Source: Escherichia coli
GTDB lineage: Bacteria; Pseudomonadota; Gammaproteobacteria; Enterobacterales; Enterobacteriaceae
DNA length: 64,000 nucleotides
Assembly (NCBI RefSeq): GCF_003991155.1
Contig: NZ_CP031295.1
Direction: 5' to 3' (one strand)
The notes under the pieces were generated by a model, which was given only the letters and a program-made list of their open reading frames with translations, had not been told where the DNA came from and did not search any database. The translations under genes were made by a program, and so were the position numbers. Shown piece after piece: positions 33,192 through 60,143 of the stretch; the stretch's first letter is position 1, and each line of letters opens with the position of its first letter.

Positions 33192-33199
33192 AAGTGACC

Positions 33200-39076: not shown

Positions 39077-39374
39077 TATCTCATCTGCGCAAGGCAGAAC
39101 GTGAAGACGGCCGCCCTGGACCTCGCCCGCGAGCGCCAGGCGCACGAGGCCGGCGCGCGGACCCGCGCCACGGCCCACGAGCGGACGCCGCAGCAGGAGC
39201 GCCAGAAGGCCGCCAGAGAGGCCGAGCGCGGCCGTGAGGCTTGGACGCTAGGGCAGGGCATGAAAAAGCCCGTAGCGGGCTGCTACGGGCGTCTGACGCG
39301 GTGGAAAGGGGGAGGGGATGTTGTCTACATGGCTCTGCTGTAGTGAGTGGGTTGCGCTCCGGCAGCGGTCCTGA

Positions 39375-40025: not shown

Positions 40026-40029
40026 GCTT

Positions 40030-40085
40030 GACACTTTATCACTGATAAACATAATATGTCCACCAACTTATCAGTGATAAAGAAT
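40030..40085 (+). promoter_or_regulatory. tet operator palindromes in tetR-tetA intergenic region
   Basis: ttatcactgataa and cttatcagtgataaaga palindromic half-sites between divergent tetR and tetA. Confidence 0.55.
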
Positions 40086-40130
40086 CCGCGCGTTCAATCG
40101 GACCAGCGGAGGCTGGTCCGGAGGCCAGAC

Positions 40131-41330: not shown

Positions 41331-41468
41331 TCGTGGAAACGATAGGCCTATGCCATGCGGGTCAAGGCGACTTCCGGCAAGCTATACGCGCCCTAGGAGT
41401 GCGGTTGGAACGTTGGCCCAGCCAGATACTCCCGATCACGAGCAGGACGCCGATGATTTGAAGCGCAC

Positions 41469-42245: not shown

Positions 42246-42382
42246 GCGATTACAAGACCTCCGCTACGGCGATGGGTTTTTGAGAGTTGCAGGCGCCGCG
42301 ATGACCGCACCCTGACTTGGACTGGCCCTGCCTCGCACCAATCCACCTGCGGCTATGGCCGCGATCATGCGAGGCCCGAAAA

Positions 42383-42720
42383 TTACACGACCTGTACACG
42401 TCCGCCGAACCCGGAACGCAACAGAGCTTCGTGGGCATCCCGATCCGGGTCGTAGCAGCAGTCCTGGACCAAACGCACGTCGTAGTCCGCATCACTAGCC
42501 CAGGCGACGCTTGAAAGAACAACGCCGGTGGTGCTTATCCCGGCCATGACAAGCGTGCTTACGCCGCGCGTCCGAAGGTCGGCGTCGAGCGCCGTGCCAT
42601 AAAAGACGCTGGCTCGCGGACATGCATAGAAAAGGTCGCCCCGTTCGATCGCAAGCCCTTCGACGGGCAGACCGGTGCGAAATCGTCCGCTCGGGAGATA
42701 CGGTGAGATTTGGCGATTCG
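42383..42720 (-). pseudogene. Isochorismatase-family (cysteine hydrolase) C-terminal fragment
   Basis: C-terminus ...STLVMAGISTTGVVLSSVAWASDADYDV... resembles isochorismatase family; no N-terminus; upper boundary approximate. Confidence 0.35.
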
Positions 42721-42739
42721 TCGCCGGCGGCGCATGTTC

Positions 42740-44320
42740 ATACTCTTCGCCGAGCGAAAAGTTGGGGAACAGCACGGGCCGGCCGCGCAAGGCGTGCTGG
42801 CAGCCGTGCAGACCCTGCGTGAGATGAACGCCGACAACCTGCGCAAGGTGCCGGCCGATGCACCCACGGCCTTCATCAAGCCGCGCTGGAAGCCGCTGGT
42901 GATCACCCCGGAAGGCCTCGACCGGAAATTCTACGAAATCTGCGCCCTGTCCGAGCTGAAGAACGCCCTGCGCTCCGGCGACATCTGGGTCAAGGCTCGC
43001 GGCAGTTCCGCGACTTCGACGACTACCTGCTGCCGGCCGAGAAGTTCGCCGCACTCAAGCGCGAGCAGGCCTGCGGCGATCAACCCGAACAGCGACCAGT
43101 ACACGGAAGAGCGTTTGCAGCTGCTGGACGAGCAGTTGGCCACCGTCACCCGCGGCCAGGACGGCAAGCTGCCCGATGCCATCCTCACCGAGTCAGGGCT
43201 GAAAATCACCCCGCTGGATGCGTGCCGGATCGGCGCAGGCGCTGATCGACCAAACCAGCCAGGTTACTGCCGCGCATCAAGATCACCGAACTGCTGATGG
43301 ACGTGGACGACTGGACGGGCTTCAGCCGCCACTTCACCCACTTGAAGGACGGGCCGAGGCCAAAGACAGGACGTTGCTGCTGTCCGCAATCCTCGGTGAT
43401 GCGATCAGCCCGGGCTGACCAAGATGGCCGAGCCGAGCCCGGCCTGACTGCCAAGCTGTCGTCGCGGCAAGCACGGCACATCCGCGACGAAACCTATTCG
43501 GCGGCCTTGGCCGAGCTGGTCAACCACCAGTATCGCCACGCCTTTGCCGCCCACTGGGGCGACGGCGACCTCATCCTCCGATGGCCAGCGCTTCCGCGCG
43601 GGTGGCCGGGCGAGAGCACCGGCACGTCAACCCGAATACGGTAGCGAGCCGGGACGGCTGTTCTACCCATATCTCCGACCAGTACGCGCCGTTCAGCACC
43701 CGCGTGGTGAATGTCGGCGTCCGCGATTCCACCTATGTGCTCGACGGCCTGCTGTACCACGGTCCGACCTGCGGATCGAGGAGCACTACACCGACACGGC
43801 CGGCCCGCGATCACGTCTTTTGCCCTGATGCACCTGCTGGGCTTCCGCTTCGCGCCGCGCATCCGCGACCTCGGCGAAACCAAGCTGTACGTGCCGCAGG
43901 GCGTGCAAGCCTACCCGACGTTGCGCCCGCTGATCGGCGGCACCCTGAACATCAAGCACGTGCGTGCCCACTGGGACGACATCCTGCGCCTGGCCAGCTC
44001 GATCAAGCAGGGCACCGTCACCGCCTCGCTGATGCTGCGCAAGCTCGGCAGCTACCCGCCAGAACGGACTGGCCGTGGCCCTGCGCGAGCTGGGCGGATC
44101 GAGCACGCTGTTCATCTGGACTGGCTGCAAAGTGTTGAACTGCGCCGCCGCGTGCATGCCGGCCTGAACAAAGGTGAGGCGCGCAACTCGCTGGCGGGGG
44201 TGTTCTTCAACCGCCTTGGGGAAATCAGGGATCGGAGCTTCGAGCAGCAGCGCTACCGGGCCAGCGGCCTCAACCTGGTGACGGCGGCTATCGTGCTGTG
44301 GAACACGGTGTACCTGGAAC
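42740..44320 (+). pseudogene. tnpA: Second copy (copy B) of Tn1721-type tnpA 3' segment, heavily affected by indels/substitutions, 3'-truncated by IS26
   Basis: Same transposase sequence as 37543-39043 but extends further 5' and is broken into many frames; 5' boundary approximate. Confidence 0.65.
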
Positions 44321-45140
44321 GGCACTGTTGCAAAGTTAGCGATGAGGCAGCCTTTTGTCTTATTCAAAGGCCTTACATTTCAAAAACTCTGCTTACCAGG
44401 CGCATTTCGCCCAGGGGATCACCATAATAAAATGCTGAGGCCTGGCCTTTTGCGTAGTGCACGCATCACCTCAATACCTTTGATGGTGGCGTAAGCCGTC
44501 TTCATGGATTTAAATCCCAGCGTGGCGCCGATTATCCGTTTCAGTTTGCCATGATCGCATTCAATCACGTTGTTCCGGTACTTAATCTGTCGGTGTTCAA
44601 CGTCAGACGGCACACGGCCTTCGCGTTTGAGCAGAGCAAGCGCGCGACCATAGGCGGGCGCTTTATCCGTGTTGATGAATCGCGGGATCTGCCACTTCTT
44701 CACGTTGTTGAGGATTTTACCCAGAAACCGGTATGCAGCTTTGCTGTTACGACGGGAGGAGAGATAAAATCGACAGTGCGGCCCCGGCTGTCGACGGCCC
44801 GGTACAGATACGCCCAGCGGCCATTGACCTTCACGTAGGTTTCATCCATGTGCCACGGGCAAAGATCGGAAGGGTTACGCCAGTACCAGCGCAGCCGTTT
44901 TTCCATTTCAGGCGCATAACGCTGAACCCAGCGGTAAATCGTGGAGTGATCGACATTCACTCCGCGTTCAGCCAGCATCTCCTGCAGCTCACGGTAACTG
45001 ATGCCGTATTTGCAGTACCAGCGTACGGCCCACAGAATGATGTCACGCTGAAAATGCCGGCCTTTGAATGGGTTCATGTGCAGCTCCATCAGCAAAAGGG
45101 GATGATAAGTTTATCACCACCGACTATTTGCAACAGTGCC
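44321..45140 (-). mobile_element. tnp26: IS26 copy 2 with frameshifted transposase
   Basis: Terminal IRs present; tnp26 split into ORFs 44419-44703 and 44700-45095 by single-base indels relative to copies 1 and 3. Confidence 0.8.
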
Positions 45141-45479
45141 CGCCCGCCTATGGTCGCGCGCTTGCTCTGCTCAAACGCGAAGGCCGGTGCCCGTCTGACG
45201 TTGAACACCGACAGATTAAGTACCGGAACAACGTGATTGAATGCGATCATGGCAAACTGAAACGGATAATCGGCGCCACGCTGGGATTTAAATCCATGAA
45301 GACGGCTTACGCCACCATCAAAGGTATTGAGGTGATGCGTGCACTACGCAAAGGCCAGGCCTCAGCATTTTATTATGGTGATCCCCTGGGCGAAATGCGC
45401 CTGGTAAGCAGAGTTTTTGAAATGTAAGGCCTTTGAATAAGACAAAAGGCTGCCTCATCGCTAACTTTGCAACAGTGCC
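45141..45479 (+). mobile_element. Partial IS26 (3' 339 bp with IRR), inverted relative to copy 2
   Basis: tnp26 C-terminal coding sequence plus terminal IR TTTGCAACAGTGCC at 45466-45479. Confidence 0.75.
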
Positions 45480-45616
45480 AATTTATGAGTAAAGGATTAT
45501 GTCCACGATAAGCACCTGGGTCGATTCCTGGGAGGCGGCCATGAGGGTAGGGAAGCGCCGTCCCGTCAAGTCAGCGTAATGCTCTGCCAGTGTTACAACC
45601 AATTAACCAATTCTGA

Positions 45617-46432
45617 TTAGAAAAACTCATCGAGCATCAAATGAAACTGCAATTTATTCATATCAGGATTATCAATACCATATTTTTGAAAAAGCCGTTT
45701 CTGTAATGAAGGAGAAAACTCACCGAGGCAGTTCCATAGGATGGCAAGATCCTGGTATCGGTCTGCGATTCCGACTCGTCCAACATCAATACAACCTATT
45801 AATTTCCCCTCGTCAAAAATAAGGTTATCAAGTGAGAAATCACCATGAGTGACGACTGAATCCGGTGAGAATGGCAAAAGCTTATGCATTTCTTTCCAGA
45901 CTTGTTCAACAGGCCAGCCATTACGCTCGTCATCAAAATCACTCGCATCAACCAAACCGTTATTCATTCGTGATTGCGCCTGAGCGAGACGAAATACGCG
46001 ATCGCTGTTAAAAGGACAATTACAAACAGGAATCGAATGCAACCGGCGCAGGAACACTGCCAGCGCATCAACAATATTTTCACCTGAATCAGGATATTCT
46101 TCTAATACCTGGAATGCTGTTTTCCCGGGGATCGCAGTGGTGAGTAACCATGCATCATCAGGAGTACGGATAAAATGCTTGATGGTCGGAAGAGGCATAA
46201 ATTCCGTCAGCCAGTTTAGTCTGACCATCTCATCTGTAACATCATTGGCAACGCTACCTTTGCCATGTTTCAGAAACAACTCTGGCGCATCGGGCTTCCC
46301 ATACAATCGATAGATTGTCGCACCTGATTGCCCGACATTATCGCGAGCCCATTTATACCCATATAAATCAGCATCCATGTTGGAATTTAATCGCGGCCTC
46401 GAGCAAGACGTTTCCCGTTGAATATGGCTCAT
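45617..46432 (-). CDS. aph(3')-Ia: APH(3')-Ia aminoglycoside phosphotransferase (kanamycin/neomycin resistance)
   Basis: 271 aa MSHIQRETSCSRPRLNSNMDADLYGYKWARDNVGQSG...; flanked by IS26 as in Tn4352-like structures. Confidence 0.9.
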   Translation of the reverse strand: MSHIQRETSCSRPRLNSNMDADLYGYKWARDNVGQSGATIYRLYGKPDAPELFLKHGKGSVANDVTDEMVRLNWLTEFMPLPTIKHFIRTPDDAWLLTTAIPGKTAFQVLEEYPDSGENIVDALAVFLRRLHSIPVCNCPFNSDRVFRLAQAQSRMNNGLVDASDFDDERNGWPVEQVWKEMHKLLPFSPDSVVTHGDFSLDNLIFDEGKLIGCIDVGRVGIADRYQDLAILWNCLGEFSPSLQKRLFQKYGIDNPDMNKLQFHLMLDEFF

Positions 46433-46519
46433 AACACCCCTTGTATTACTGTTTATGTAAGCAGACAGTTTTATTGTTCATGATGATATATTTTTATCTT
46501 GTGCAATGTAACATCAGAG

Positions 46520-47339
46520 GGCACTGTTGCAAATAGTCGGTGGTGATAAACTTATCATCCCCTTTTGCTGATGGAGCTGCACATGAACCCATTCAAAGGC
46601 CGGCATTTTCAGCGTGACATCATTCTGTGGGCCGTACGCTGGTACTGCAAATACGGCATCAGTTACCGTGAGCTGCAGGAGATGCTGGCTGAACGCGGAG
46701 TGAATGTCGATCACTCCACGATTTACCGCTGGGTTCAGCGTTATGCGCCTGAAATGGAAAAACGGCTGCGCTGGTACTGGCGTAACCCTTCCGATCTTTG
46801 CCCGTGGCACATGGATGAAACCTACGTGAAGGTCAATGGCCGCTGGGCGTATCTGTACCGGGCCGTCGACAGCCGGGGCCGCACTGTCGATTTTTATATC
46901 TCCTCCCGTCGTAACAGCAAAGCTGCATACCGGTTTCTGGGTAAAATCCTCAACAACGTGAAGAAGTGGCAGATCCCGCGATTCATCAACACGGATAAAG
47001 CGCCCGCCTATGGTCGCGCGCTTGCTCTGCTCAAACGCGAAGGCCGGTGCCCGTCTGACGTTGAACACCGACAGATTAAGTACCGGAACAACGTGATTGA
47101 ATGCGATCATGGCAAACTGAAACGGATAATCGGCGCCACGCTGGGATTTAAATCCATGAAGACGGCTTACGCCACCATCAAAGGTATTGAGGTGATGCGT
47201 GCACTACGCAAAGGCCAGGCCTCAGCATTTTATTATGGTGATCCCCTGGGCGAAATGCGCCTGGTAAGCAGAGTTTTTGAAATGTAAGGCCTTTGAATAA
47301 GACAAAAGGCTGCCTCATCGCTAACTTTGCAACAGTGCC
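46520..47339 (+). mobile_element. tnp26: IS26 copy 3 (tnp26 46583-47287)
   Basis: 14-bp IRs at both ends, intact transposase. Confidence 0.9.
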
Positions 47340-47660
47340 ACGAACAGCACCTTCAGATAATGGTATCCAGTCAATTTGTGCCTTCATAATACCAGTCATC
47401 GCTCCATGTCGTTCCGGAGAGCACCACACCATTCCTTCAGACCAGCGAACCAGTTCACGCAACTCCATAACTTTTGGATGTGATTCCGGTGCATCATCAG
47501 GAAGTGGAAGGCCAGATGGATTAAAAATGCGGACGTCTGCGCCCATTGCAGTTAACAAACGGCCTGCTTCCTCTGTCGCCAGTCGACTGTATGAGCGCTC
47601 ACGAACTGAGCCATAAAGCATTAGAATACGAGGTGGGTGAGATATTGCCGGTATCCCCAT
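47340..47660 (-). pseudogene. arsH: arsH (NADPH-dependent FMN reductase) 5' fragment truncated by IS26
   Basis: N-terminal ~107 codons with ...[13 protein letters not shown]...[24 protein letters not shown] then IS26 boundary. Confidence 0.6.
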
Positions 47661-47820
47661 TTTTTGCTCAGTTATTGCAGTATCAGATAAATCAGGAACT
47701 ATATTATTTAACCTATTAATTTTTATGATTTTCTCTATATATTCTTGGCTTAATTAGGTGTGCTTCGCACGGGTAGATACAGCATTCGTCAATCATGACA
47801 GTTATGAGTTTTCCGGTTAC

Positions 47821-48248: not shown

Positions 48249-49328
48249 ATGAATAGTTGGATTCCTATGTTGCAAGATGCCGCAGAGATGTTTGTTTTTC
48301 TGGCTGTTGAGCTTTCATTGCTGTTTATTGTCATTAGTGCCGGTGTGAGCCTGATAAGGCAAAAAGTCCCGGATCATAAAATTCAGCAGATGATGGGGGC
48401 GAGAAAAGGTAAGGGGTATCTGTTGGCCTCGTTGCTGGGAGCCGTTACCCCTTTCTGTAGTTGCTCAACAATTCCAATGTTGCGAGGATTGTTGTCTGCG
48501 AAAGCGGGGTTTGGTCCGACACTCACTTTTTTGTTTGTTTCACCGTTGCTTAATCCCATTATCGTGGGACTAATGTGGGTTACCTTTGGCTGGAAAGTAA
48601 CTTTGCTGTATGCGATCATCGCTGCCGGTGTTTCAGTTCTTTCCAGTATTATACTGGATTATTTAGGGTTTGAACGTCATATTGTTGAATACAAAAATTC
48701 AGTATCAGGTAGTTGCGCCACCAAGTGCGGTGATTCTGAAGCTTCGGTAAAAACGAATTGCTGTACTTCATCAGCAAAAACCATAATTAACTTAAAGACA
48801 GTAAAGAAAGAGCAAAATATATCGGCGTGTTGTCCCTCAATTCTATCAGAAAAATCTTCTGAAAGTTGTTGCAGCAGCGAGAGTCAGGGCAACAGAAATC
48901 TCACAATGAATGCCACCTCTGGTCTAATAAAATTAGCAATGAAAGATGCCTTACAACAGTTTAAGGATGTTCTGCCTTATCTTTTGTTAGCTATATTAAT
49001 AGGTTCATTTATTTATGGTTTTATCCCTTCAGAGTGGATTGCAGCTCATGCCGGTGCAGATAATCCATTAGCCATACCGCTCAGTGCTGTTGTTGGTATT
49101 CCGCTGTATATTCGTGCTGAGGCCGTAATACCACTTGCATCAGTTCTGATGACTAAAGGTATGGGCCTCGGAGCTTTAATGGCCTTGATAATCGGTAGTG
49201 CTGGAGCGAGTCTGACAGAAGTAATATTGCTTAAATCAATGTTCAGAATGCCCATGATAATCGCATTTCTGACGGTTATCTTAGGTATGGCAATCCTTAT
49301 GGGATATTTAACGCAATTTTTGTTTTAA
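48249..49328 (+). CDS. arsP: ArsP-like permease (putative organoarsenical efflux)
   Basis: 359-aa polytopic protein with TPFCSCS motif; divergent from arsR. Confidence 0.6.
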   Translation: MNSWIPMLQDAAEMFVFLAVELSLLFIVISAGVSLIRQKVPDHKIQQMMGARKGKGYLLASLLGAVTPFCSCSTIPMLRGLLSAKAGFGPTLTFLFVSPLLNPIIVGLMWVTFGWKVTLLYAIIAAGVSVLSSIILDYLGFERHIVEYKNSVSGSCATKCGDSEASVKTNCCTSSAKTIINLKTVKKEQNISACCPSILSEKSSESCCSSESQGNRNLTMNATSGLIKLAMKDALQQFKDVLPYLLLAILIGSFIYGFIPSEWIAAHAGADNPLAIPLSAVVGIPLYIRAEAVIPLASVLMTKGMGLGALMALIIGSAGASLTEVILLKSMFRMPMIIAFLTVILGMAILMGYLTQFLF

Positions 49329-49620
49329 TCCTTATGAGAAGGGATTTTTGCGTCAATATGAAAATCCCTTCAGTCTTACGGCGCGGTTCTAACGGTGTAG
49401 CCCTTTTATTGTTATCCCTAAACCACCTCCTAGGGAGGTGGTGATTGATCCTGTAAGGCTATAGCCTGAAGAATGCCCATGTCGGAATATCTCTGCTTAC
49501 TGACCACAAGTAAAAGCAACTGTTCTACCAGCAGCCTGCAAAAAACATATAAGCTGATCTGAAAGGAATACTTCACAATGAATATTATTGTGTTTGTAAC
49601 CTGCTGTTATCGCGATGAAA

Positions 49621-50238
49621 TTACCGTTCAGTTTTTTCGGTTGACGCGGACTGTTCCTGCATGGTTTTCATCTTTAGCTTCTGTTGTTCCCTTACTGCCA
49701 GCCAGCGTCTGGCATTCAGCGCATCGCATTCTGATACCTGACCTGCTGGTAGTCCATCCAGTCCATAACGAGGGATACCTGCGACAGCAGTACGCTGCAG
49801 ATATACCTGTCGGGTGGTGATGCAGGATATTGCACAGGACCATTCATCCAGTGTCAGTTCTGTCTCAGGGTGTTCTGTCAGGAATGCGGCAAAATCATTG
49901 GTTATGCCAATTTTCAGTGGAAGAAATCCTCCGCCTTCTGCGCGAAGATGGGGAAACAGAGACTTCACTTTTTCCACGCAATCGTGAGTAAATTCATGAG
50001 TCCAATGAGGCTGGCGTGGAAAACGGCGTCTTTTCTTTTTTTTCTTACAGGCAGGAGCATCAGGGGTATGAGTATCGACGGCAGGCGAACTGATCCCCTC
50101 AGAGACTGATTCTTCCATCTTTTCTGTCTCTGAACGTGCGATAACACCTGTTTTTTCAGATAAGGAAGGGGGTAAAAGAGTGCGACGTTTTTTCACCATA
50201 ATGATGGGTGTTTTCTTTTCTTCCTGATATTTCCCCAT
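49621..50238 (-). CDS. FinO/ProQ-domain RNA-binding protein (second FinO-family gene in window)
   Basis: Lys/Arg-rich N-terminus followed by FP..PLKIGI...YL...A.RYGLDG pattern shared with FinO/ProQ domain. Confidence 0.55.
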   Translation of the reverse strand: MGKYQEEKKTPIIMVKKRRTLLPPSLSEKTGVIARSETEKMEESVSEGISSPAVDTHTPDAPACKKKKKRRRFPRQPHWTHEFTHDCVEKVKSLFPHLRAEGGGFLPLKIGITNDFAAFLTEHPETELTLDEWSCAISCITTRQVYLQRTAVAGIPRYGLDGLPAGQVSECDALNARRWLAVREQQKLKMKTMQEQSASTEKTER

Positions 50239-50525
50239 AAAAACCTCTACGATGTGTTCTTATATAATAATATATATCATATTTTCACGATTAACATAAT
50301 ATCTTCGTTAAGAAAACAACAGAGCAAAATTTGTTTTTTTTTGACAGGCATGAAATGAGCCAGCATAATTATATTAATTATTATCCCAAATGAGTTTTTG
50401 TATTTGCTCATTCGGGATGGTTGGATATTTTAAGTTATATCTACTGTATCATTCTCAGGTAATCGTTCCATTAAATCAGAAACTACGGGCTGTAACCAGT
50501 CAGTGACTTCACTCACATACTGATG

Positions 50526-51992
50526 TCATTCGGGATGCCTGGAGGCCAGATCCATCACTCGTGTTAACCCGGACGGACGATCAATGCCCAATTTAGTTAA
50601 AATATTCGAGATATAATTATGAGCATCAAGTTCAACTCTGATATCCCTTGCTGCTTCGATTATTTCTAAATATTCGCCACCCAATCCGTCCAGTGGGACA
50701 TTTGTAATAAGATAATGAATGTATTGTTCAGGCTTAACCCCATTTGGGAGATTAAATTGTTTTACTTTTCCTTCCGCTGCCGCTTTTAACTCATAAGTTC
50801 GTGATTCTGTGCCGGTGAAAACTTTATCACGAGCAGTTTTCTTTTCATTTTCTGTGGAATATTTATCGCCATCAAGAATATAAAGTTTACCAGATAGATT
50901 GTCACCACGAATAAGGGTACTGGCAAGTAGAGTGAATGCGTTTGAAGCTGCGCCAAATTTAAATATTTTTACATATTTGCTGGCCTTAAGTGAAGAACAT
51001 ATTTTATTTATTATGGCAACAGCTAAGTCATCTTCTACATATATTTCAATAGGCGTCGTTGATTCACCTGTTAATCTGTTTATAGCATCAGGTTTTGTTT
51101 CTTCAAATGAATAACTACGGCCTTGAATGTTTACGACGTGTCTTATATTTATCTTGTCTGATAAAGTGGTTATCATTTCTCTATGGGTAGTAAAGATGAT
51201 TTGTTTGTTTTTATCTTTGGCATGAGATGATATGACTTCTATTAACTTTTTCAATGCTTCGTCATGCAACAATAAATCTAATTCATCAATTAATATTAAG
51301 GCGTTCTTGTCCGCTTTCAATATTGTTTCCAGAATTAAAAATATCTTTTGCTCTCCTGCGCTCATACTCAATGATGAGTAGGCCAGTCCCCCTGACTCAA
51401 CTCCAATCAATATTTTTCCATTGGGTTGTTGATGCTGATTGAAACTTGTGTATGGTTTATTAAGTATATAGGAGGCGTAATGAAGAATGTTTGTTATTAA
51501 ATCATTACTGACACTGCTGGTTTCATACTGAATATTATTCTTTTTTTCTGATTCTATTATAGGAACACATTTATCAATGCCAAGATAGTAAACTTCTCTT
51601 AAAGGACGACGAGCATAAATCTGAATCCATCGTGAGCCTCGAATATCTGCTTTTCCATAATTTTTCAATTCATTTTCAATCATTACCCCATCTTTACGAT
51701 AAGTTAAATTTACAATGAAGTCACTGCCGTTCCATTCAGCATGTGGGCTGCGTGGAAAAAAATGCATTAACCGATGGTCTTCACCGGGGAAACCTTCTTC
51801 AGGCATGTATATGCTTGCTATAGCATGGAGTATTGTTGATTTTCCGCTTCCATTTGGACCTAAAATTGCGGTTAACGCATGAGGTTTAAAAATAATCTCG
51901 TTTAATCCATTTATACATTTTAGTTTGTTAATTTTAATGGAGTTCAAGACTTGACCAGTAATGGTTTTTTTATTTTTTTCTGCCATTTTCAA
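50526..51992 (-). CDS. ABC-type ATPase fused to TOPRIM/DUF4435-like domain (OLD-family or fused PARIS-like candidate)
   Basis: Walker A GPNGSGKST, signature-like LSMSAGEQK, Walker B LILIDELDLLLHDE, H-loop TTH; C-terminal VEDD ... LYILDGDK consistent with TOPRIM E and DxD. Confidence 0.6.
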   Translation of the reverse strand: MKMAEKNKKTITGQVLNSIKINKLKCINGLNEIIFKPHALTAILGPNGSGKSTILHAIASIYMPEEGFPGEDHRLMHFFPRSPHAEWNGSDFIVNLTYRKDGVMIENELKNYGKADIRGSRWIQIYARRPLREVYYLGIDKCVPIIESEKKNNIQYETSSVSNDLITNILHYASYILNKPYTSFNQHQQPNGKILIGVESGGLAYSSLSMSAGEQKIFLILETILKADKNALILIDELDLLLHDEALKKLIEVISSHAKDKNKQIIFTTHREMITTLSDKINIRHVVNIQGRSYSFEETKPDAINRLTGESTTPIEIYVEDDLAVAIINKICSSLKASKYVKIFKFGAASNAFTLLASTLIRGDNLSGKLYILDGDKYSTENEKKTARDKVFTGTESRTYELKAAAEGKVKQFNLPNGVKPEQYIHYLITNVPLDGLGGEYLEIIEAARDIRVELDAHNYISNILTKLGIDRPSGLTRVMDLASRHPE

Positions 51993-52248
51993 ATCCTAGC
52001 ATTATGTTGGGGGGATTCACCATGTAATTCAGAAACATATAACTGTGAACAGGGGATATATCAAATCCTTTTAATATTCTATTTGGCACAGTATTCTACA
52101 TCAGGCCTCTTTTATGCTACAGACTTTTTGAGATGTCTGTAATTTTAGACTTAATGTTATGACTGATCATATCTCCTATCCACTGGTGGCGCAGGAAAGT
52201 TAACCAGCTGCCACCATGGGATGATGTGTAAACCGTGCTGGTATGTTT

Positions 52249-52839
52249 TTACGGGGTGACGCTTTCATTAACCTGTACACGAACCTCCATTCCGGCATCG
52301 TGACAGGCCTGCAGCCACTGCGCCACTTCCAGCGGATCGCCCTCCAGGCGTACCACCCTGCCTTCTTTATTCCATAACTGCAGACAGGTGCTGCCGTCGA
52401 GACGTACCACAAAATCCCCACGGCAGGCCTGATACGTTATGCCGTTCAGCTGCACCGCCAGATCAGTGGCAGAAGTGCCGTCTGCGGGCAGACCTGCTGC
52501 CGGGACCAGCGGCAGTACGACGACTTCTGCCGCACGCTGTTCTGCCCGGAGGCGGTCCTGTTCTGCCAGCAGCAGAGGCTGTGCCACGGCCCGGCCGGCG
52601 TCCGTCAGCTCGACAGCCAGCTGCAGATTCGGGGCGCGCAGGGTACGCAGCCAGCCGGCATCCTCCAGACGACGGCAGGAGGCGCGCAGGTTTGGCCCGT
52701 AGACCGGGGCTTCCCCGCTTCGCTCCAGCACCCGTTCCAGGTCCCGCGTCAGCACGGGGCCCGGCCGTTTTTCATCAAGCGCAGCCAGCACAATCAGCAC
52801 TCTCCGCTGCAGTGGCGACGGTCGGCGGCTCTGGGTCAT
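52249..52839 (-). CDS. Hypothetical protein with possible N-terminal winged-helix domain (GC-rich)
   Basis: 196-aa ORF; start overlaps upstream gene stop (TAATG); family not recognised. Confidence 0.35.
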   Translation of the reverse strand: MTQSRRPSPLQRRVLIVLAALDEKRPGPVLTRDLERVLERSGEAPVYGPNLRASCRRLEDAGWLRTLRAPNLQLAVELTDAGRAVAQPLLLAEQDRLRAEQRAAEVVVLPLVPAAGLPADGTSATDLAVQLNGITYQACRGDFVVRLDGSTCLQLWNKEGRVVRLEGDPLEVAQWLQACHDAGMEVRVQVNESVTP

Positions 52840-53096
52840 TACCTGTCATCCTCCGGCCAGATGAGGTTTCTGAGGCGCTGAAAGTCGGCGTCAATGAGCT
52901 CCTGTCTCTTTATGGCATTCATTGAGGCATAGCCATTTATGGCCAGTTCATGCCAGAAGATCAGCACGGCTCCGGCTTTGGCTGACTCGCAGAGATAAAT
53001 CGCGCCCTGGCTGTCCAGATTGCATTCCCGGATGCGTTTTTCCGCAAACCGGGTCAGTTGTTCATAGCTGAGTGAAAACACCCTTTCTTCATCCAT
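52839..53096 (-). CDS. Hypothetical small protein, first gene of two-gene cassette
   Basis: 85-aa ORF translationally coupled to 52249-52839. Confidence 0.3.
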   Translation of the reverse strand: MDEERVFSLSYEQLTRFAEKRIRECNLDSQGAIYLCESAKAGAVLIFWHELAINGYASMNAIKRQELIDADFQRLRNLIWPEDDR

Positions 53097-53449
53097 CCTG
53101 CACGCTCCATCTGATAATGTACTGACAGGTAAAAATAATATCCTGCATGATTTGTGTGCTCATGATTTCTGATAATATCAGATATTGTTTTATCATCAAT
53201 GATGAAAACCATATCTGATATGATTTTATATATATTTCTTAATTATCATATCATTTGCGTCTTTTCTGCCGCGCAGATCCAGTTTCCGGCTAAGTCGGAT
53301 CGACCTAATCTTTGTTTCTGATATGAACACCTCGGAGAGGTGTAAGCAATGGTATAAACGAAATGTATTATGTATCTGCATCACAGCATGCGGGCACATT
53401 TTGCGGAAGGATATGAATCCCCCCGGAATAACTGGCAAAGGACAGATAA

Positions 53450-55588
53450 ATGGACATTGAAATACGCCACTGCAATAACATCGTACGAGCACATATCACC
53501 CTCACTGCCGATAAACTGAACATTAAGTTTGCGCCAAATGGTACTGGAAAAAGTACGCTGTCACGGGCCATAAGCTGTGCGGCGCGGGACGACATTCAGG
53601 GACTACAGGCACTGATGCCCTTCCGGCTGCGCGGAGAAAACCCCGATAGCACCGGGCCCATTGTCATCGGTGCTGACGGGATTGGGGACGTGATGTGCTT
53701 CAACGAGGAGTACGTCAGTCAGTTTACGTTCCAACCGGACGAGCTCATCAGTGATAGCTTTAATATTCTTATCCGCAATCAAGCCCATGCGGAAAGAGAG
53801 CGTGAAATAGAAGAAATGACGCAAAAGATCCGGGCTGTTTTCACGGATCACACTGAGCTGAACTCTCTGATAGACCATCTACAGGAACTCAGTAATGCTT
53901 TCAGATCAACCAGTTCCGGGATTTCACGTTCTTCAACCGGCATGAGAGGTCTGTCAGGCGGAAATAAAATACACCACATTCCGGCTGGTCTTGAGAACTA
54001 TCAACCCTACATCCGCAGTGAACGCCGCGTGGAATGGATTGACTGGCAGACAAAGGGACTCGAGTTTTCGCCCCTTTCGGATGGCTGCTGTCCGTTCTGT
54101 ACCGGTGATATCACGGGAAAGGAAGCACAAATTCGCCAAGTCAGAGAGGAATACGATAAATCCACCATTAAAAACCTGACCGCTATCATCAGACTGGTGG
54201 AAAACCTCGGTAATTACCTGACGGAGAGCGCCAGAGAACGCCTTCTGGCCATTACTATGCTTCAGAACGGTCCGGAAGCCGAACATATCGAGTACCTAGT
54301 GGCGTTGAAACGCCAGACCGATACGCTGACAGAGAAACTCACTGCGCTGAGAGGCCTGAATGTTTTCAGCCTGCAGGAACAGCAGAACGTTCGGGAGGTG
54401 CTCACTGCCAGGTTGATTGACCTGCAGTTCTTCCCTGATCTGCAATCCGAACTCATGCAGGGGATCACCGACAGACTGAACGCGGCCCTTATGGACCTGA
54501 TAAACCTTGCCGGACCGCTGCAGGGAAAAATTAACCGGCACCGGGACAGCATGATCCGGCTGATCGCACAGCACAAAACAAACATCAATAATTTCCTCAC
54601 TTATGCAGGCTATAAATACAGGGTGGATATAGCCGGCGAGGGAGAGCAGAGAAAACTCAGGCTACGACACATAGATTTTGACGGGTACGTCAGCGGCGGT
54701 AGCCAGCATCTCAGCTATGGAGAACGGAACGCCTTTGCGATTGTGTTATTCATGTATGAATGCCTGTCAAAAAACCCGGGACTGATTATCCTTGATGATC
54801 CCATATCTTCTTTTGATAAAAACAAGAAGTTTGCCATTCTTGAAATGCTGTTCAGACGTGCAAGTGGTGAATGCCTGAAGAACCGGACTGTACTTATGCT
54901 GACGCATGACGTGGAGCCTGTGATTGACACGCTGAAGTCAGTCAGAAGGTTGTTCAGTAATCAGGTGACCGCCTCCTGCCTGCGCCTGTCTGCTGGAGTC
55001 ATAGAAGAATTACCTGTTAACGACGGCGATATCATGACATTCATGCAGATCTGCAAATCCATCACCGCGTCAGCAGACTGTGAGGAGATCATTAAGCTCA
55101 TCTATCTTCGTCGCTACTTTGAAATCGTTGACGAACGTGGTGATGCTTATCAGCTTCTATCCAATCTATTCCATCGACGCGTCGTCCCGCTGGATTATCG
55201 CGAGCCTGCCGCTGCGGGCTCGGGCTATCCCAAAATGGCTCCTGAGAAAATTCAGCAGGCCTTGCGGGATATCCGGGAGTATGTGGACAGTTTTGATTAC
55301 CCGCGACTTCAGGCTCTCGTCAGCAGCCCAGATGAAATAAAAAACCTGTACCGTCGCTGTCGTAACGGCTATGAAAAACTGCAGGTATTCCGTTTACTGG
55401 AACTGGATCAGGACCATCCGGTAATACGAAAATTCGTTAACGAAACGTACCACATTGAAAATGAGTTCATCTGTCAACTAGATCCGTCCAGATTCGATCT
55501 CATCCCGGAGTACGTGATTATGGAATGTGACAAGCTCATCGCCCTGCCACCGGCAGCAAACCAGAGCTCGGTTGCCCGTATCGCTTGA
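53450..55588 (+). CDS. Rad50/SMC-like ABC ATPase with CxxC hook and C-terminal extension (RloC/PrrC-like anticodon-nuclease candidate)
   Basis: Walker A APNGTGKST at N-terminus, CCPFC ~200 aa in, signature LSYGERNAF, Walker B LIILDDP, H-loop LMLTHD ~430-480, then ~230 aa C-terminal region. Confidence 0.5.
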   Translation: MDIEIRHCNNIVRAHITLTADKLNIKFAPNGTGKSTLSRAISCAARDDIQGLQALMPFRLRGENPDSTGPIVIGADGIGDVMCFNEEYVSQFTFQPDELISDSFNILIRNQAHAEREREIEEMTQKIRAVFTDHTELNSLIDHLQELSNAFRSTSSGISRSSTGMRGLSGGNKIHHIPAGLENYQPYIRSERRVEWIDWQTKGLEFSPLSDGCCPFCTGDITGKEAQIRQVREEYDKSTIKNLTAIIRLVENLGNYLTESARERLLAITMLQNGPEAEHIEYLVALKRQTDTLTEKLTALRGLNVFSLQEQQNVREVLTARLIDLQFFPDLQSELMQGITDRLNAALMDLINLAGPLQGKINRHRDSMIRLIAQHKTNINNFLTYAGYKYRVDIAGEGEQRKLRLRHIDFDGYVSGGSQHLSYGERNAFAIVLFMYECLSKNPGLIILDDPISSFDKNKKFAILEMLFRRASGECLKNRTVLMLTHDVEPVIDTLKSVRRLFSNQVTASCLRLSAGVIEELPVNDGDIMTFMQICKSITASADCEEIIKLIYLRRYFEIVDERGDAYQLLSNLFHRRVVPLDYREPAAAGSGYPKMAPEKIQQALRDIREYVDSFDYPRLQALVSSPDEIKNLYRRCRNGYEKLQVFRLLELDQDHPVIRKFVNETYHIENEFICQLDPSRFDLIPEYVIMECDKLIALPPAANQSSVARIA

Positions 55589-55749
55589 GCCACTGTTTTT
55601 GCCGCCGGAAGATAGGCTTTAGCTCCCTGATAGTCTGATCTTCGAAGATACCCTACAGTTTAGGACCGCTTACTGTAGATATCTGTTAAAACAGCCCGTA
55701 TACGGGCTGTTTCTTGGTGCCCTTATCTCCTGACTTTGAAAAGAGTGTC

Positions 55750-56166
55750 TTACTTCACCCAGTCTTCCAGCACCAGGTCAGGCACTCGCTCAAATTCTCT
55801 TGTATTATTCGTTACCAGTATCGCCCCGGCGGCGATGGCGTGCCCGGCAATCGCCGTGTCGTTCGGGCCGATCGGCGTCCCGGCCAGCCGCAGTGCCACT
55901 TTAATCTTCGTGGTGGCGTCTACTGCGGCGCGATCCCAGGGCAGGATGGCATCGAGGCGGGCGCAGAATTCATCGACCAGTTGGACGTGACGTGGTGAGG
56001 CCTTTGGGCCGGTAGCCCCGAAGCGCATTTCAGAGTAGGTGATGGCCGAGACCACTATACGGTGGCCGCGTAGCACCGCCTGCTCCAGACGCTTCAGGAC
56101 GGCTTCTGGCTGTTCACGCATGATGAACGAGCAGATACAGGTATCAAGCATATAAGTCTTGTTCAC
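55750..56166 (-). CDS. vapC: VapC/VagD PIN-domain toxin
   Basis: 138 aa MNKTYMLDTCICSFIMREQ...; overlaps antitoxin gene. Confidence 0.85.
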   Translation of the reverse strand: MNKTYMLDTCICSFIMREQPEAVLKRLEQAVLRGHRIVVSAITYSEMRFGATGPKASPRHVQLVDEFCARLDAILPWDRAAVDATTKIKVALRLAGTPIGPNDTAIAGHAIAAGAILVTNNTREFERVPDLVLEDWVK

Positions 56167-56393
56167 AGGTTAAATCGCCCTTCGTCGCTGACAACATCCT
56201 CGCGCTCCGCCATAAAATCTGGATCGGCTTTTTCGTACTCTAGGAATGATCCCCAGGTTGGCCGGACGGGGCGCAGGATGATGCTGTCCCCTTCCCGGAC
56301 GATCTCGAGCTCGCTCACCCCCTCAAAATCCAGATCACGAGGCAGACGGATGGCGCGGTTGTTGCCATTTTTGAATATCGATACGGTTCTCAT
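56163..56393 (-). CDS. vapB: VapB/VagC antitoxin
   Basis: 76-aa ORF upstream of PIN toxin with 4-nt overlap. Confidence 0.8.
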   Translation of the reverse strand: MRTVSIFKNGNNRAIRLPRDLDFEGVSELEIVREGDSIILRPVRPTWGSFLEYEKADPDFMAEREDVVSDEGRFNL

Positions 56394-56409
56394 GTTTTTT
56401 CTCTCCCGA

Positions 56410-56545
56410 GCATATGGATATGTGAAACATATCCGGAATATTCAAAGCACCGGGTGTGTGCATATGTTTAGTATAGGCAGATGTGTGGCATATGTATAGC
56501 GGTAGCATATGTAGATGCCAGGCATATGTTTAGCATATCTCTATT
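56410..56545 (+). repeat. Array of 5-6 direct repeats with CATATG core in the divergent vapB / 56689-gene promoter region
   Basis: gcatatgg, catatcc, gcatatgtttag, gcatatgtatag, gcatatgtagat, gcatatgtttag seen at ~17-28 bp spacing. Confidence 0.45.
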
Positions 56546-56688
56546 TCTTTCTTTTTTATCGGAGATCCGAAAAAAGGTTAAGTCTGATCTTAATGAAATT
56601 ACATGGAATTTGAGTGATATCCCTTACCCCACATCTCCAACGTGCTATCTATAAAGGTTGATACATCTCACTTAGTCCGGAGGTTGTT

Positions 56689-56979
56689 ATGAGCGTCAAA
56701 ATCACAGGTTTAGACAAAATGCAGAAACAGCTAAAAGAGGTTGAGAGAGCAACAGAGGCATTAAACGGAAGTTATGATGTCCACTTCGATGCTAACGATC
56801 CTGTCAGCATTGAGAACGCGATTCAGGAAGCCTATTCCATGGTGTACGAACGCGCTTCTGGTTATGCCACTAATCCGATGGTCAGCCCATTAATCGAACA
56901 CATGAAAGAAAATCTGCGCCAACAGATTCTGGACAGAGCAGAACAACAAAGACAGGAGAGCGGGCAGGATGGCAATTGA
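56689..56979 (+). CDS. Hypothetical small protein (96 aa), first gene of operon with TIR-like protein
   Basis: ORF with 11-nt overlap onto downstream gene start; no recognised motif. Confidence 0.35.
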   Translation: MSVKITGLDKMQKQLKEVERATEALNGSYDVHFDANDPVSIENAIQEAYSMVYERASGYATNPMVSPLIEHMKENLRQQILDRAEQQRQESGQDGN

Positions 56980-57868
56980 TATCTTTCAGTCACTTAAAAA
57001 TTGCGTATTCGACCTTCAGCGCGCTGACGTTCAGAACTATCAGCAACCTCTTAAGCAATTGGCCCGGCTCTTGAACTCAGAGAATCTGCAGTCAGTTAAT
57101 GCACATCTGACCCGCAATGTTGAACTTGATACCTTTCTGGCCAGGAGTGAAGATACTGAATCCAGCATGGCTGGTTCCGCTGTTCTACAGTGGCCTGATG
57201 AGCCCGCTGATATTTTGGGCCTGAAGTTGCTGCTGATCGAGAAAATGGCAGACGATAACAATTTTTCCTTTAATTTCTGTCATACATTTTTCTATGATCG
57301 AAACATTATTGAATCCATTCGAAAATTCACGTCGTCATTAGTTGCCCCGTTCGTGCGCGATTACCAGTTGTATGTGGAAAACCAACACGATCCTGAGCCT
57401 GCAGTGTTTCGGCCGGTTTCCCGAAAAATTTTTATTGTTCATGGCCATGATAATGATGCCCTTCAGTCTGTTGCCCGTTTTATATCCCGGATAGGTCTTG
57501 AGGAAATCATTCTTTCAGAACGTCCTGACGGCTCCAGGACGATTATCGAGAAATTTGAAGCAGAGTCAGGGGATGTCAGTTTTGCCATCGTGCTGATGAC
57601 GCCCGACGATAGCGGCAGTGCTCTGGCATCTGAAAGCACACGTCTCCGCGCACGCCAGAATGTCCTGTATGAGCTCGGATATTTCGCCGGGAAGCTTGGA
57701 CGCGGGAAAGTACTTGTACTCAGGAAGGGAGATATCGAAATCCCTTCAGATCTTGCCGGGGTTCTCTATACCGAGCTTGATGAGCATGGTGGATGGAAAC
57801 GCAAACTGCTGAGTGAGCTTGCGTATGCCGGTGTTCCTTTTGACAAGGATAAAGCATTAAGCGCCTGA
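56969..57868 (+). CDS. Protein with C-terminal TIR-like nucleotide-binding domain
   Basis: C-terminal ~140 aa with KIFIVHGHD ... FAIVLMTPDD ... NVLYELGYFAGKLGRGKV pattern resembling bacterial TIR-like domains; N-terminal ~150 aa unrecognised; RBS aggagag upstream. Confidence 0.5.
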   Translation: MAIDIFQSLKNCVFDLQRADVQNYQQPLKQLARLLNSENLQSVNAHLTRNVELDTFLARSEDTESSMAGSAVLQWPDEPADILGLKLLLIEKMADDNNFSFNFCHTFFYDRNIIESIRKFTSSLVAPFVRDYQLYVENQHDPEPAVFRPVSRKIFIVHGHDNDALQSVARFISRIGLEEIILSERPDGSRTIIEKFEAESGDVSFAIVLMTPDDSGSALASESTRLRARQNVLYELGYFAGKLGRGKVLVLRKGDIEIPSDLAGVLYTELDEHGGWKRKLLSELAYAGVPFDKDKALSA

Positions 57869-57885
57869 TCTCCTTCATTTAGTAA

Positions 57886-57915
57886 GAAAAAGGCCGCTAA
57901 GCGGCCTTAATTTTT
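57886..57915. terminator. Bidirectional rho-independent terminator between convergent genes
   Basis: aaaaaggccgc taa gcggccttaattttt: GC stem flanked by A-run and T-run. Confidence 0.6.
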
Positions 57916-57917
57916 GG

Positions 57918-60143
57918 TCAGTCGTCATTTTCCAGCGCTGTTTTGAGCGCTTCCTGCTCCGGAGTCAGCTCGTTGCCGGACAGCATAACCTTCAACTTCT
58001 CTTCGACTGCTGGCCAGTCATCAAAGAACGGACTGACCTGGTCACGCGCAATCCGGCGATATGCCCCTCGGTGGGAGCTGAAGACACTGGTCTGTAATCG
58101 TATCAACAGGTTAACAAGGCCTTCATCAGTGGTAGTAACTTCTCTGACCCATTGCTTCACGGTTTCACCTGAACTCATGTCTCTCCAGGCGTAGAGATAC
58201 CCGAGAAGAGACTTGCGCAGGAGAAGCTGTTGCTGAAGTTCTGGTTGATTCATACGTTCCGCAAACCTGTCACGCAACCGTTCCGTAATATCGCGACTGA
58301 AAAGAGCGTCTGAAGGCGAAGGTACTGCATTCTGAGCAAGTCCATGTTCCCAGATAAGATCCCGCATAAAATCGGCTATCCAGAACGGCGAAGCACCCGT
58401 AACGATCAGTTTTTCCATAAGCGTGATCGTTCTGGTCTCATCAATATCCTGCATATGCTTCAGCAGATGCCGTACAACCTCATTAATGGCCATTTCACGC
58501 AGGGAAAACCATGGGTTACGGATACTGAAGCGAGTGCTCACCTCATCGGTGTGATCGAAGAAAAAATGAACCAGTCCTGCGCACTCTTCGAAATTACGTT
58601 CTCTTATCAGGCCTGGAGTCAGTCTGCTCAGTATATGTTCAAACCAGGTTCCGGACAGACTGCCCACACTGTTGATTTTTGAGAGCAGCAATTCAGAAAG
58701 CTGCTGCTGTTTTTCCGATACGCCAGCCTGTTCAAAAAGCTGTCTGAAGAATTCAGGTGGCAGAACATTCTGTGGTGAGGAGAAGGCAAAATAATATCGC
58801 CAGTGCGTCAGGCTGCTGAGTCGTTTACCGGTCGTCTGGATATGACGAAAATCCTCACTGACGGGCTCAAAAAGATTCAGATATTCATCATTATGTCCAC
58901 TGATACCTGGGATCCAGTCTGCAAGTGTCAGAAACGAGTCTGCATTTGATGCCCTGAACGTCTTCATACATCTGATAAGCCCCTCCCGGAAGTCTGCTTT
59001 CTCTCCGTCAGAAAGCATACCCTGACCGGTTTCAATCACGGACCGTTCTGTCAGGTAATGCTCTGTCCAGTCATACAGAGCCGGGTTTGTCACCCGTATA
59101 AGCTGAAGCAGGCACAAATCAGGGAAATAAACAAAATCCCGCATCCCCGGATAAAGAAAAATCAGGGAATTAATGGCCTGATGGATTTCCCGTGGCGTCG
59201 AAAGTGCGGCACCATAGGTATCAGTCACCGCGATGAGATCCCTTACCATTCCAGAGTCTGGCGGTTGATTATTAATTTGCTGATATAGAGCCTCAGCCCG
59301 CTGGCGAAATTCATTACGTAAATCAAAGGCTTCAGGTCGGGGTAATTTAAAACTAAGCTGAATGATTTTCTGGAGATAACGGCTGCCATCTTCGATATTC
59401 AGCGCATGTTCAACGGCATGAGTGATAATCTGCCTGTCATAACAGAGAATATGGGTAAAGCGGGGCAGATCGGCTACTGCACGCACAAGCCTGAACACTT
59501 CCGCCACCTGGGATGGCTCCAGTCGGTCCAGATCATCCATGACAACAATGAACTTCAGATCCAGACTCACCAGTTGTCCTGCAATTTCAGCCCGAAGCTT
59601 TGTCGTGGTTTTCTGATCAACAGCCAGACGGCTGTCTGAAAATACCTTTATTCCGCCTGCTATCCAGTTAATAATGCTGGAAAACTGTCCGATATATTGA
59701 ACCAGTGGAAGGACGCGCGATGAAGTATCCTGAGCATACTCAATCACTTTTTGAGCTTCCGGTGACAACAGATATTTACGCCAGAGCTTTTTGAAGCCCT
59801 TCGGGGGATAGCGTATTTCCATTTCCTGCTGGATAACCGTGGCAACCGGAAGAAAGAGCGCTTCAACCGGACTGCCGCCACTCAGCCAGGGAGAAATATG
59901 CAGCACATGCGTGTGAGCATCTTTTTTCAGGGCAAGGTTTCTCAGGATCAGATTAAGGAGGCTTGTTTTACCCGATCCCCATGCACCTTCTATTCCGACA
60001 ACATTTGAAGCCTCCAGAGGAAGAGTAAGGATGGAACGGGATATATTTTCTGCGATATTACCGAAACCGTATCGATCCTCAGGTACATCTTCAACTGCCG
60101 CATCAAGCCCTTTCTGGTTCCACAGCTGCCTCAGTATCTTCAT
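57918..60143 (-). CDS. KAP-family P-loop NTPase
   Basis: 741 aa; Walker A GIEGAWGSGKTSLLNLI, Walker B FIVVMDDLDRLEP, large helical C-terminal region. Confidence 0.7.
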   Translation of the reverse strand: MKILRQLWNQKGLDAAVEDVPEDRYGFGNIAENISRSILTLPLEASNVVGIEGAWGSGKTSLLNLILRNLALKKDAHTHVLHISPWLSGGSPVEALFLPVATVIQQEMEIRYPPKGFKKLWRKYLLSPEAQKVIEYAQDTSSRVLPLVQYIGQFSSIINWIAGGIKVFSDSRLAVDQKTTTKLRAEIAGQLVSLDLKFIVVMDDLDRLEPSQVAEVFRLVRAVADLPRFTHILCYDRQIITHAVEHALNIEDGSRYLQKIIQLSFKLPRPEAFDLRNEFRQRAEALYQQINNQPPDSGMVRDLIAVTDTYGAALSTPREIHQAINSLIFLYPGMRDFVYFPDLCLLQLIRVTNPALYDWTEHYLTERSVIETGQGMLSDGEKADFREGLIRCMKTFRASNADSFLTLADWIPGISGHNDEYLNLFEPVSEDFRHIQTTGKRLSSLTHWRYYFAFSSPQNVLPPEFFRQLFEQAGVSEKQQQLSELLLSKINSVGSLSGTWFEHILSRLTPGLIRERNFEECAGLVHFFFDHTDEVSTRFSIRNPWFSLREMAINEVVRHLLKHMQDIDETRTITLMEKLIVTGASPFWIADFMRDLIWEHGLAQNAVPSPSDALFSRDITERLRDRFAERMNQPELQQQLLLRKSLLGYLYAWRDMSSGETVKQWVREVTTTDEGLVNLLIRLQTSVFSSHRGAYRRIARDQVSPFFDDWPAVEEKLKVMLSGNELTPEQEALKTALENDD

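Follow-up and report, generated by a model that had tools for sequence, protein, structure and literature searches.

The phage-interference gene ibfA on an IncF-type plasmid of Escherichia coli: an ABC ATPase joined to a predicted TOPRIM domain, in a probably impaired allele

The window analysed here, a stretch of 64,000 nucleotides of Escherichia coli DNA (contig NZ_CP031295.1), contains at 50526..51992, on the minus strand, an open reading frame (ORF) which could be confirmed as real. The gene is ibfA, through which R64-type ('Delta') IncI1 plasmids interfere with phages; it belongs to the HEC-04 family, and this reading, together with the likely mechanism proposed below, has high confidence. 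It is not a new gene: it is a named and described plasmid-borne phage-defence gene, encoding an ATPase sensor together with a TOPRIM nuclease domain. The window copy belongs to a block of defence genes whose carrier is of IncF type and not of IncI1 type, and judging from two changes in its sequence the allele is probably impaired, that is, weakened or dead.

Compared with ibfA of R64, the window gene is identical at 1555 of 1557 nt and differs at 2, and a segment of ≈ 4.2 kb around it is found with 100% identity in many plasmids of enterobacteria, among them R64, the IncI1 reference. In the R64 record (AP005147, nt 32,653-34,209) the gene is annotated just as 'AAA family ATPase', 518 aa; since these coordinates equal the ones published for R64 ibfA ('inhibition of bacteriophage BF23', 32,653-34,209; PMC8004404), the window gene can be named ibfA. 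Its position between a ProQ/FinO-like gene and ydeA/ydfA is the one expected for R64-type ibfA, and the gene order proQ-like, ibfA, ydeA, ydfA is the order described for pUA1135.

The gene has borne its name since the annotation of R64, its role in defence was shown genetically in 2025, and the HEC-04 family has been validated by active-site mutagenesis. Lopez-Perez et al. (2025, PMC12111858) studied ibfA of pUA1135, which is 97% identical and blocks a P22-like phage: its deletion restored plating of phage UAB_Phi20, and the cloned gene alone, under its own promoter, gave an efficiency of plating of 0.05. The phenotype was abortive-like, with burst size and late transcripts reduced, phage DNA replication unchanged, and loss of viability of infected ibfA+ cells without lysis. 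Payne et al. (2024 preprint) reported that HEC-04 protects against T4 and T5 and is toxic on induction, and that the K62A and E319A/D375A/D377A mutants are inactive; the protein assayed was encoded within an Hma system and not on a plasmid. Judged by position, as opposed to alignment, K62, E319, D375 and D377 correspond to K49, E318, D372 and D374 of IbfA. The mutagenesis of Walker A and TOPRIM acidic residues proposed in a preliminary description of this DNA has thus already been published on a family member, with loss of defence.

Residue numbers throughout are counted from the ATG at 51986. This is the correct start according to the Shine-Dalgarno spacing, it is also used by RefSeq, and the product therefore has 486 aa, not the 488 aa of the preliminary description. 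Of the single gene placed there at 50526-51992, the ORF itself stood, but neither the start at TTG 51992 nor 50526 as a natural end did. Comparison with R64 revealed that the frame ends at 50526 by a nonsense change (TGG to TGA, codon 487); in the R64 alignment the ancestral ibfA ORF reaches 50430 and encodes 518 aa, the full length of R64-type IbfA, which the window product does not attain. With a G+C content of 35.5%, ibfA lies below both the window (52%) and the adjoining upstream gene (65%).

51994..51997, minus strand: Shine-Dalgarno sequence AGGA, with a spacer of 7 nt to ATG 51986 and merely 1 nt to TTG 51992
50526..51986, minus strand: ibfA coding sequence of the window allele, 486 aa plus premature TGA (ORF and R64 comparison)
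50430..50525, minus strand: untranslated 3' remnant of ibfA, codons 488-518 plus TAA stop (R64 alignment), translating to HQYVSEVTDWLQPVVSDLMERLPENDTVDIT before the stop

Domain architecture and family of IbfA

Conservation was assessed in an alignment of 60 homologues with 46-75% identity. All motifs named in the preliminary description, namely the Walker A, signature, Walker B and H-loop set of an ABC ATPase and the acidic VEDD and DGD motifs further downstream, were found, with catalytic positions invariant in 60/60 homologues. The invariant residues are K49, S207-E212, E235, D237, H241 and H268 in the ATPase, and E318, D319, D372, G373, D374, E420, E441, H456 and W487 in the C-terminal half. 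On this alignment, the motif set goes far beyond chance.

51102..51986, minus strand: ABC-type ATPase domain, residues 1-295 (Pfam AAA_21, SMC_N, AAA_15, ABC_tran; Foldseek)
51834..51863, minus strand: Walker A / P-loop LGPNGSGKST, K49 invariant
51348..51374, minus strand: ABC signature SLSMSAGEQ (residues 205-213), S207 to E212 invariant
51264..51302, minus strand: Walker B and D-loop ALILIDELDLLLH (D234, E235, D237, H241; LILIDELD 229-237), from the alignment
51177..51194, minus strand: H-loop FTTHRE (H268), from the alignment
50742..51056, minus strand: predicted TOPRIM-fold domain, residues 311-415, strands 313-317, 339-343, 367-371 and 408-410 alternating with helices
51024..51050, minus strand: TOPRIM acidic motif 1, IEIYVEDDL (E318, D319, both invariant)
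50862..50885, minus strand: TOPRIM acidic motif 2, LYILDGDK (D372-G373-D374, all three invariant)
50529..50741, minus strand: C-terminal helical bundle, residues 416-486 kept and 487-507 lost; invariant E420, E441 and H456

The predicted layout of the protein is an ATPase (residues 1-295), a flexible linker, a metal-dependent nuclease domain of TOPRIM type (311-415) and, after it, a helical bundle (416-507). The full-length AlphaFold model, built on the 60-sequence alignment with a pLDDT (predicted local distance difference test) of 85.3, features an ABC ATPase, a low-confidence linker at 298-310, a domain of alternating strands and helices, and a helical bundle extending to residue 507. Among PDB structures, Foldseek ranked the Thermus scotoductus class 1 OLD nuclease first (6p74, complete protein, E 1.3e-13), with an alignment from one end to the other; next in rank were PtuA, Rad50 and SMC heads, which match the ATPase part. 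When the C-terminal 223 residues were modelled alone (pLDDT 87, predicted template-modelling score 0.83), the top four Foldseek matches were the C-terminal regions of Xanthomonas and Burkholderia OLD (probability 1.0, template-modelling score 0.43-0.51, ≈ 210 columns), with AriB and GajA listed after them. The C-terminal region is predicted to be a TOPRIM fold with a helical bundle. The stand-alone ABC ATPase fused to a TOPRIM-type nuclease of the preliminary description proved correct at the level of these models (pLDDT 85-87); a C-terminus without a TOPRIM fold, which would have spoken against it, was not what structure prediction gave, OLD proteins being the best matches.

In the profile searches, a look into PADLOC as suggested beforehand did return a defence model. 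HEC-04 was the best one (E 4.4e-42, 142 bits, query residues 3-393), above every other model, and the Walker A lysine and the TOPRIM E/D/D residues that go with this family are all in place; the same PADLOC assignment of ibfA has been published (PMC12111858). Second came ATPase-Toprim_I-B (PDLC02914; 3.6e-21, residues 210-403), followed by AriA, mad3 and AbiLi. For the PADLOC models Old (9e-11) and GajA (1e-11), the best stretch comprises only ATPase residues 227-308, such that no Old or GajA profile running across both domains, the mark of OLD membership by sequence, was obtained. Pfam recognizes just the ATPase part (AAA_21 at 9e-18, also SMC_N, AAA_15 and ABC_tran), and AAA_21 and AAA_15, the models proposed earlier for comparison, both match there. 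The Pfam models TOPRIM, OLD-TOPRIM and DUF4435 matched none of 22 family members, and among the PDB sequences no chain was matched significantly by a profile built from the C-terminal domain. The link from the sequence to TOPRIM exists solely via the predicted fold and the PADLOC profiles HEC-04 and ATPase-Toprim_I-B. As its C-terminal domain lacks these Pfam matches, IbfA counts by sequence as a family of its own (HEC-04/IbfA), distinct from a fused PARIS; on the models, it has the build, and presumably the mode of action, of a class 1 OLD nuclease. Of the OLD-family candidate in the preliminary description, the architecture was borne out, whereas membership by sequence was not.

A fused PARIS (AriA-AriB), in which anti-restriction proteins (Ocr, for example) set free a DUF4435 TOPRIM effector, had been considered as well, and the C-terminal region had been labelled DUF4435-like. 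The label finds no counterpart in the 22 family members at E up to 10, the matches to AriA/AriAB are limited to ATPase residues ≈ 160-274 (best AriAB stretch 191-274), and the OLD C-terminal regions outmatch AriB structurally. Furthermore, HEC-04 was reported without protection against T7, although older reports do credit R64 ibfA with T7 interference. A PARIS-type system is thus disfavoured and very improbable. Still harder to sustain, to the point of being negligible, is the idea of an ATP-binding subunit of an ABC transporter working with a neighbouring permease. Weak NCBIfam and PDB matches to transporter ATPases do occur across the P-loop, and a 'permease' gene lies 1.2 kb away; but the NCBIfam matches cover only ≈ 35 residues and stay far under the curated cut-offs (38 bits vs 190-870), so that best homology to a transporter ATPase, named earlier as a result that would count against a defence ATPase, did not emerge. 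The permease, on the opposite strand and beyond the ProQ-like gene, belongs to the ArsP_1 family and has an ArsR-type regulator next to it, and both the C-terminal TOPRIM domain and the experimental defence phenotype argue against a transporter.

Full-length homologues (≈ 500 aa) are widespread, with 802 matches in Enterobacterales, Vibrio, Aeromonas, cyanobacteria and others. No match was obtained when the protein was searched by tblastn in 50,697 phage genomes; PHROG 3940 matches the protein at profile level. DUF2813 (PF11398), which we take to cover the N-terminus of the OLD-family protein YbjD, is a precomputed match in many family members and a weak match in two longer variants. Some members of the family are longer, at 650-684 aa (homologues P0047-P0052 and P0060); in P0050 about 160 aa without Pfam match are added at the N-terminus, and P0060 has a C-terminal nucleotidyltransferase domain (NTP_transf_2/Polbeta). 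These longer proteins suggest accessory sensor or effector fusions within the HEC-04/IbfA family.

Proposed mechanism and nuclease target

We propose a sensing-and-release scheme drawn from OLD, PARIS and Gabija. The ATPase head would serve as infection sensor and switch, forming ATP-dependent head-to-head dimers; dimerization is likely because the full set of Walker A, signature, Walker B, D-loop and H-loop is present, including the signature by which a composite site is completed in a dimer. At rest, the nuclease would be kept inactive; for P2 OLD, an inactive oligomer has been reported to open upon activation. A phage-derived cue would shift the state of the ATPase or of the oligomer and free the TOPRIM site, where E318 and D372/D374 would bind Mg2+, and cleavage of nucleic acid would then halt productive infection in an abortive-like manner. 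The analysis itself bears out the identity of the gene, the predicted fold, the conservation and the absence of a conserved partner, while dimerization, trigger and substrate are the parts of this mechanism that we infer.

With regard to the substrate, we lean by analogy towards RNA, presumably tRNA, over bulk DNA. RNA is favoured because, with ibfA present, phage DNA was replicated as usual, late expression and burst size were reduced, and viability was lost without lysis, and tRNA because AriB and P2 OLD, TOPRIM effectors of like architecture, are tRNases. P2 OLD, long held to be a DNase, was described in a 2026 preprint as a tRNase causing no DNA damage in vivo. On the other hand, DNA-nicking precedents are provided by Vc OLD (class 1) and GajA, and IbfA could be a nickase or exonuclease acting on replicating phage or host DNA, like Vc OLD, TsOLD and GajA. 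Its nearest structural matches are OLD nucleases with documented DNA cleavage, the class 1 enzyme Vc OLD is a DNA nickase, and HEC-04 was aligned to the two-metal site of BpOLD (Payne et al. 2024 preprint). Yet intracellular phage DNA accumulated with ibfA as in the control, and the new assignment of P2 OLD also speaks against it; a DNA target is therefore considered rather unlikely, though well ahead of the alternative that follows.

In that alternative, put forward by the authors of PMC12111858, IbfA employs no nuclease chemistry and perturbs phage circuits (Arc/Ant, C2/Cro balance). It draws on reverse transcription quantitative PCR, in which early, immC and immI transcripts went up with ibfA, and gp14 and late genes down (PMC12111858). 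The same pattern could, however, follow from translation arrest or nucleic-acid damage. Moreover, E318 and D372/D374 are invariant across very distant hosts which lack P22-like phages, the acidic triad is needed in HEC-04, and R64 ibfA/HEC-04 has been reported to affect unrelated phages such as BF23/T5, T4, lambda and P22, a breadth that speaks against a regulatory target specific to P22. A purely regulatory role has, on balance, a small chance of being right, and a TOPRIM nuclease released upon infection and directed at RNA remains the preferred reading.

The damaged allele and its distribution

The premature stop and the damaging substitution in the window ibfA were absent from the preliminary description. 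Over 10.6 kb of the window (49300-59909) there are only two differences from R64, and both fall inside ibfA, for which the probability with two random changes is ≈ 0.02.

50526..50528, minus strand: W487*, codon 487 TGG to TGA (G to A at 50526); W in 60/60 homologues
50829..50831, minus strand: L386R, codon 386 CTT to CGT (T to G at 50830); L/I/V in 60/60 homologues

W487* deletes 32 residues, among them the confidently predicted terminal helices 487-507 (pLDDT ≈ 94) with the near-invariant E507, and L386R falls in the predicted helix 379-389 of the TOPRIM domain. The stop allele is present in 40 of 700 PLSDB plasmids carrying the segment and in 42 complete-genome E. coli records, ibfA as such being found in 372 of 5426 complete E. 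coli genomes (≈ 7%), and the exact 486-aa protein occurs on 461 public contigs. L386R is seen in 30 PLSDB plasmids, and at least 2 plasmids have the stop without L386R. Since the stop is in more plasmids and also occurs alone, the nonsense change probably came first and L386R second, as expected for a gene released from constraint. Among the PLSDB plasmid matches to ibfA, ≈ 34 of 740 are fragments. The plasmids with W487* measure ≈ 105-140 kb (IncF-type) and ≈ 277 kb (cf. NZ_CP029748.1 and NZ_CP041997.1). As their sizes are so different, the damaged allele has moved between backbones or travelled with the whole block.

Tentatively, and with somewhat less than even confidence, the allele may be taken to reflect selection against an active defence gene, first through the nonsense change and then through a core-disrupting L386R, with spread on IncF and other plasmids, mainly in human-associated E. 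coli and Shigella. If so, certain plasmids or hosts would pay for IbfA in fitness or through autoimmunity, and activity would depend on, or be regulated by, the C-terminal helix 487-507. A variant, in which the truncated protein retains an altered and less toxic activity, is less likely. The natural alleles W487* and L386R are well suited for testing whether the C-terminal helix is needed in the ATPase-TOPRIM family. In a wider context, ≈ 740 PLSDB plasmids and 7% of the complete E. coli genomes carry ibfA as a mere 'AAA family ATPase', such that the annotation of plasmid defence lags behind, and about one in ten ibfA carriers is visibly damaged (W487* or fragment), which matters for phage resistance inferred from sequence and for the outcome of phage therapy.

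Genomic neighbourhood and comparison with known systems

Within the published transcript, ydfA, ydeA, ibfA and the ProQ-like gene are co-transcribed as seen by reverse transcription PCR (PMC12111858).

52839-53096, minus strand: ydfA, 85 aa, G+C content 52%, upstream of ibfA, co-transcription published
52249-52839, minus strand: ydeA, 196 aa, G+C content 65%, upstream of ibfA, co-transcription published
49621..50238, minus strand: ProQ/FinO-family gene downstream (Pfam ProQ 2.6e-12), published as last gene of the ibfA transcript

In the interval that separates ibfA from the ProQ-like gene, the minus strand showed no terminator-like site. A promoter scan detected only weak matches to the consensus around ibfA; the promoter placed ≈ 156 bp upstream by a published prediction was not among them. 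Neither ydeA nor ydfA has a Pfam or PADLOC match; they were rejected as partners of ibfA on the grounds of lacking domain matches, a very unlike G+C content, and absence next to homologues elsewhere. Besides, ydeA is also present in ColIb-P9, a plasmid without R64-type ibfA (PMC8004404). The 30-point gap in G+C content within one transcript points to separate origins. In other hosts, the neighbours of the homologue are a DUF7380 protein and resolvases in Klebsiella, an HNH protein near an integrase in Vibrio, and housekeeping genes in Synechocystis and Aeromonas. Across five unrelated contexts of ibfA and its homologues no conserved partner gene was found, in line with the earlier claim that no partner helicase or nuclease is adjacent, and no UvrD/PcrA-like helicase GajB was seen in the ibfA neighbourhood. 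A reading as a retron (class 3 OLD) was rejected, since the annotation lists no reverse transcriptase gene in the vicinity and a retron RNA was looked for without success.

Other genes of the block lie beyond ydfA. The 712-aa AAA_13-type ABC ATPase at 53450-55588 (plus strand) is divergent from ydfA-ydeA-ibfA and matches the PADLOC candidate PDC-S06 nearly end to end (E 4.8e-286), its public annotation being only 'AAA family ATPase'. Midway through the defence block, a vapBC toxin-antitoxin pair (55750-56393, minus strand) separates PDC-S06 from a TIR module. In the latter (56689-57868, plus strand), a 96-aa ORF overlaps the start of a 299-aa CAP12/Pycsar-type TIR protein (Pfam 3.7e-37; PADLOC PDC-S35 2.3e-65), and the pair is a candidate for a defence module of two genes; neither a CD-NTase nor a cyclase lies close by. 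The minus-strand gene at 57918-60143 is intact and encodes a KAP-family NTPase of 741 aa that matches PifA (E 2.9e-290), the protein which excludes phage T7; the neighbouring KAP NTPase of R64 (40,141-42,366) is likewise pifA (PMC8004404), and in the closely related plasmid pCREC-544_1 the pifA gene is interrupted by IS100.

On the other side of ibfA, whole and partial copies of IS26 at 44400-47700 flank aph(3')-Ia (45617-46432), and the insertion appears to interrupt arsH, giving a chimeric 160-aa ORF at 47178-47660, the R64 equivalent of arsH being intact. The 7 kb at 37000-44000 have a G+C content of 59-66% against a background of ≈ 50% and are presumably a transposon or integron insertion. 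Rfam models identify, within 15735-31774, CopA RNA (31686-31774), sok (30724-30882) and antisense RNAs to traI, traG and pHK01_099, and the window therefore represents an IncF-type conjugative plasmid with an R64-type defence block.

Among the known systems, PARIS (AriA/AriB) and Gabija (GajA/GajB) are two-gene systems, in contrast to the stand-alone ibfA, and IbfA has neither the DUF4435 signature nor a UvrD-like helicase partner, its sequence matches to them being confined to the ATPase. The retron type I-B ATPase-TOPRIM effectors (class 3 OLD, PDLC02914) come closer, in that their model ranks second for IbfA in PADLOC and is, besides HEC-04, the only one listed whose best stretch runs through the TOPRIM motifs; the difference lies in the retron components, which are missing near ibfA. 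With class 1 OLD (P2 Old, TsOLD 6p74, Vc OLD), IbfA shares the best full-length structural match (6p74), an abortive-type defence, the organization as a single gene with no helicase or retron partner, an ABC ATPase at the N-terminus and, according to fold and motifs, a C-terminal Toprim domain with acidic metal-binding motif. It differs from class 1 OLD in matching no Pfam TOPRIM model, with PADLOC Old restricted to the ATPase, and in lying among other defence genes, class 1 OLD genes being described as isolated. A possible further difference concerns the ATPase insert, which is predicted to be mostly β-strand as opposed to the inserted dimerization domain of OLD (TsOLD, GajA): in the secondary structure of the full-length model, the stretch from Walker A to the signature comprises eight strands, and its helices are all short.

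HEC-04 (PADLOC PDLC04149) is likewise a single protein with an ABC ATPase fused to TOPRIM, and its profile covers the ATPase and the acidic motifs; the profile alignment ends at position 386 of 494 (query residue 393), and the C-terminal helical bundle is left unmatched. Closest of all is IbfA of R64/pUA1135 (Lopez-Perez et al. 2025, PMC12111858), which has the same ATPase and TOPRIM architecture and the same neighbours, namely the ProQ/FinO-like gene, ydeA, ydfA, PDC-S06, vapBC, the TIR protein and pifA, and from which the window allele is set apart by W487*, with its loss of 32 C-terminal residues, by L386R, and by its residence on an IncF-type plasmid.

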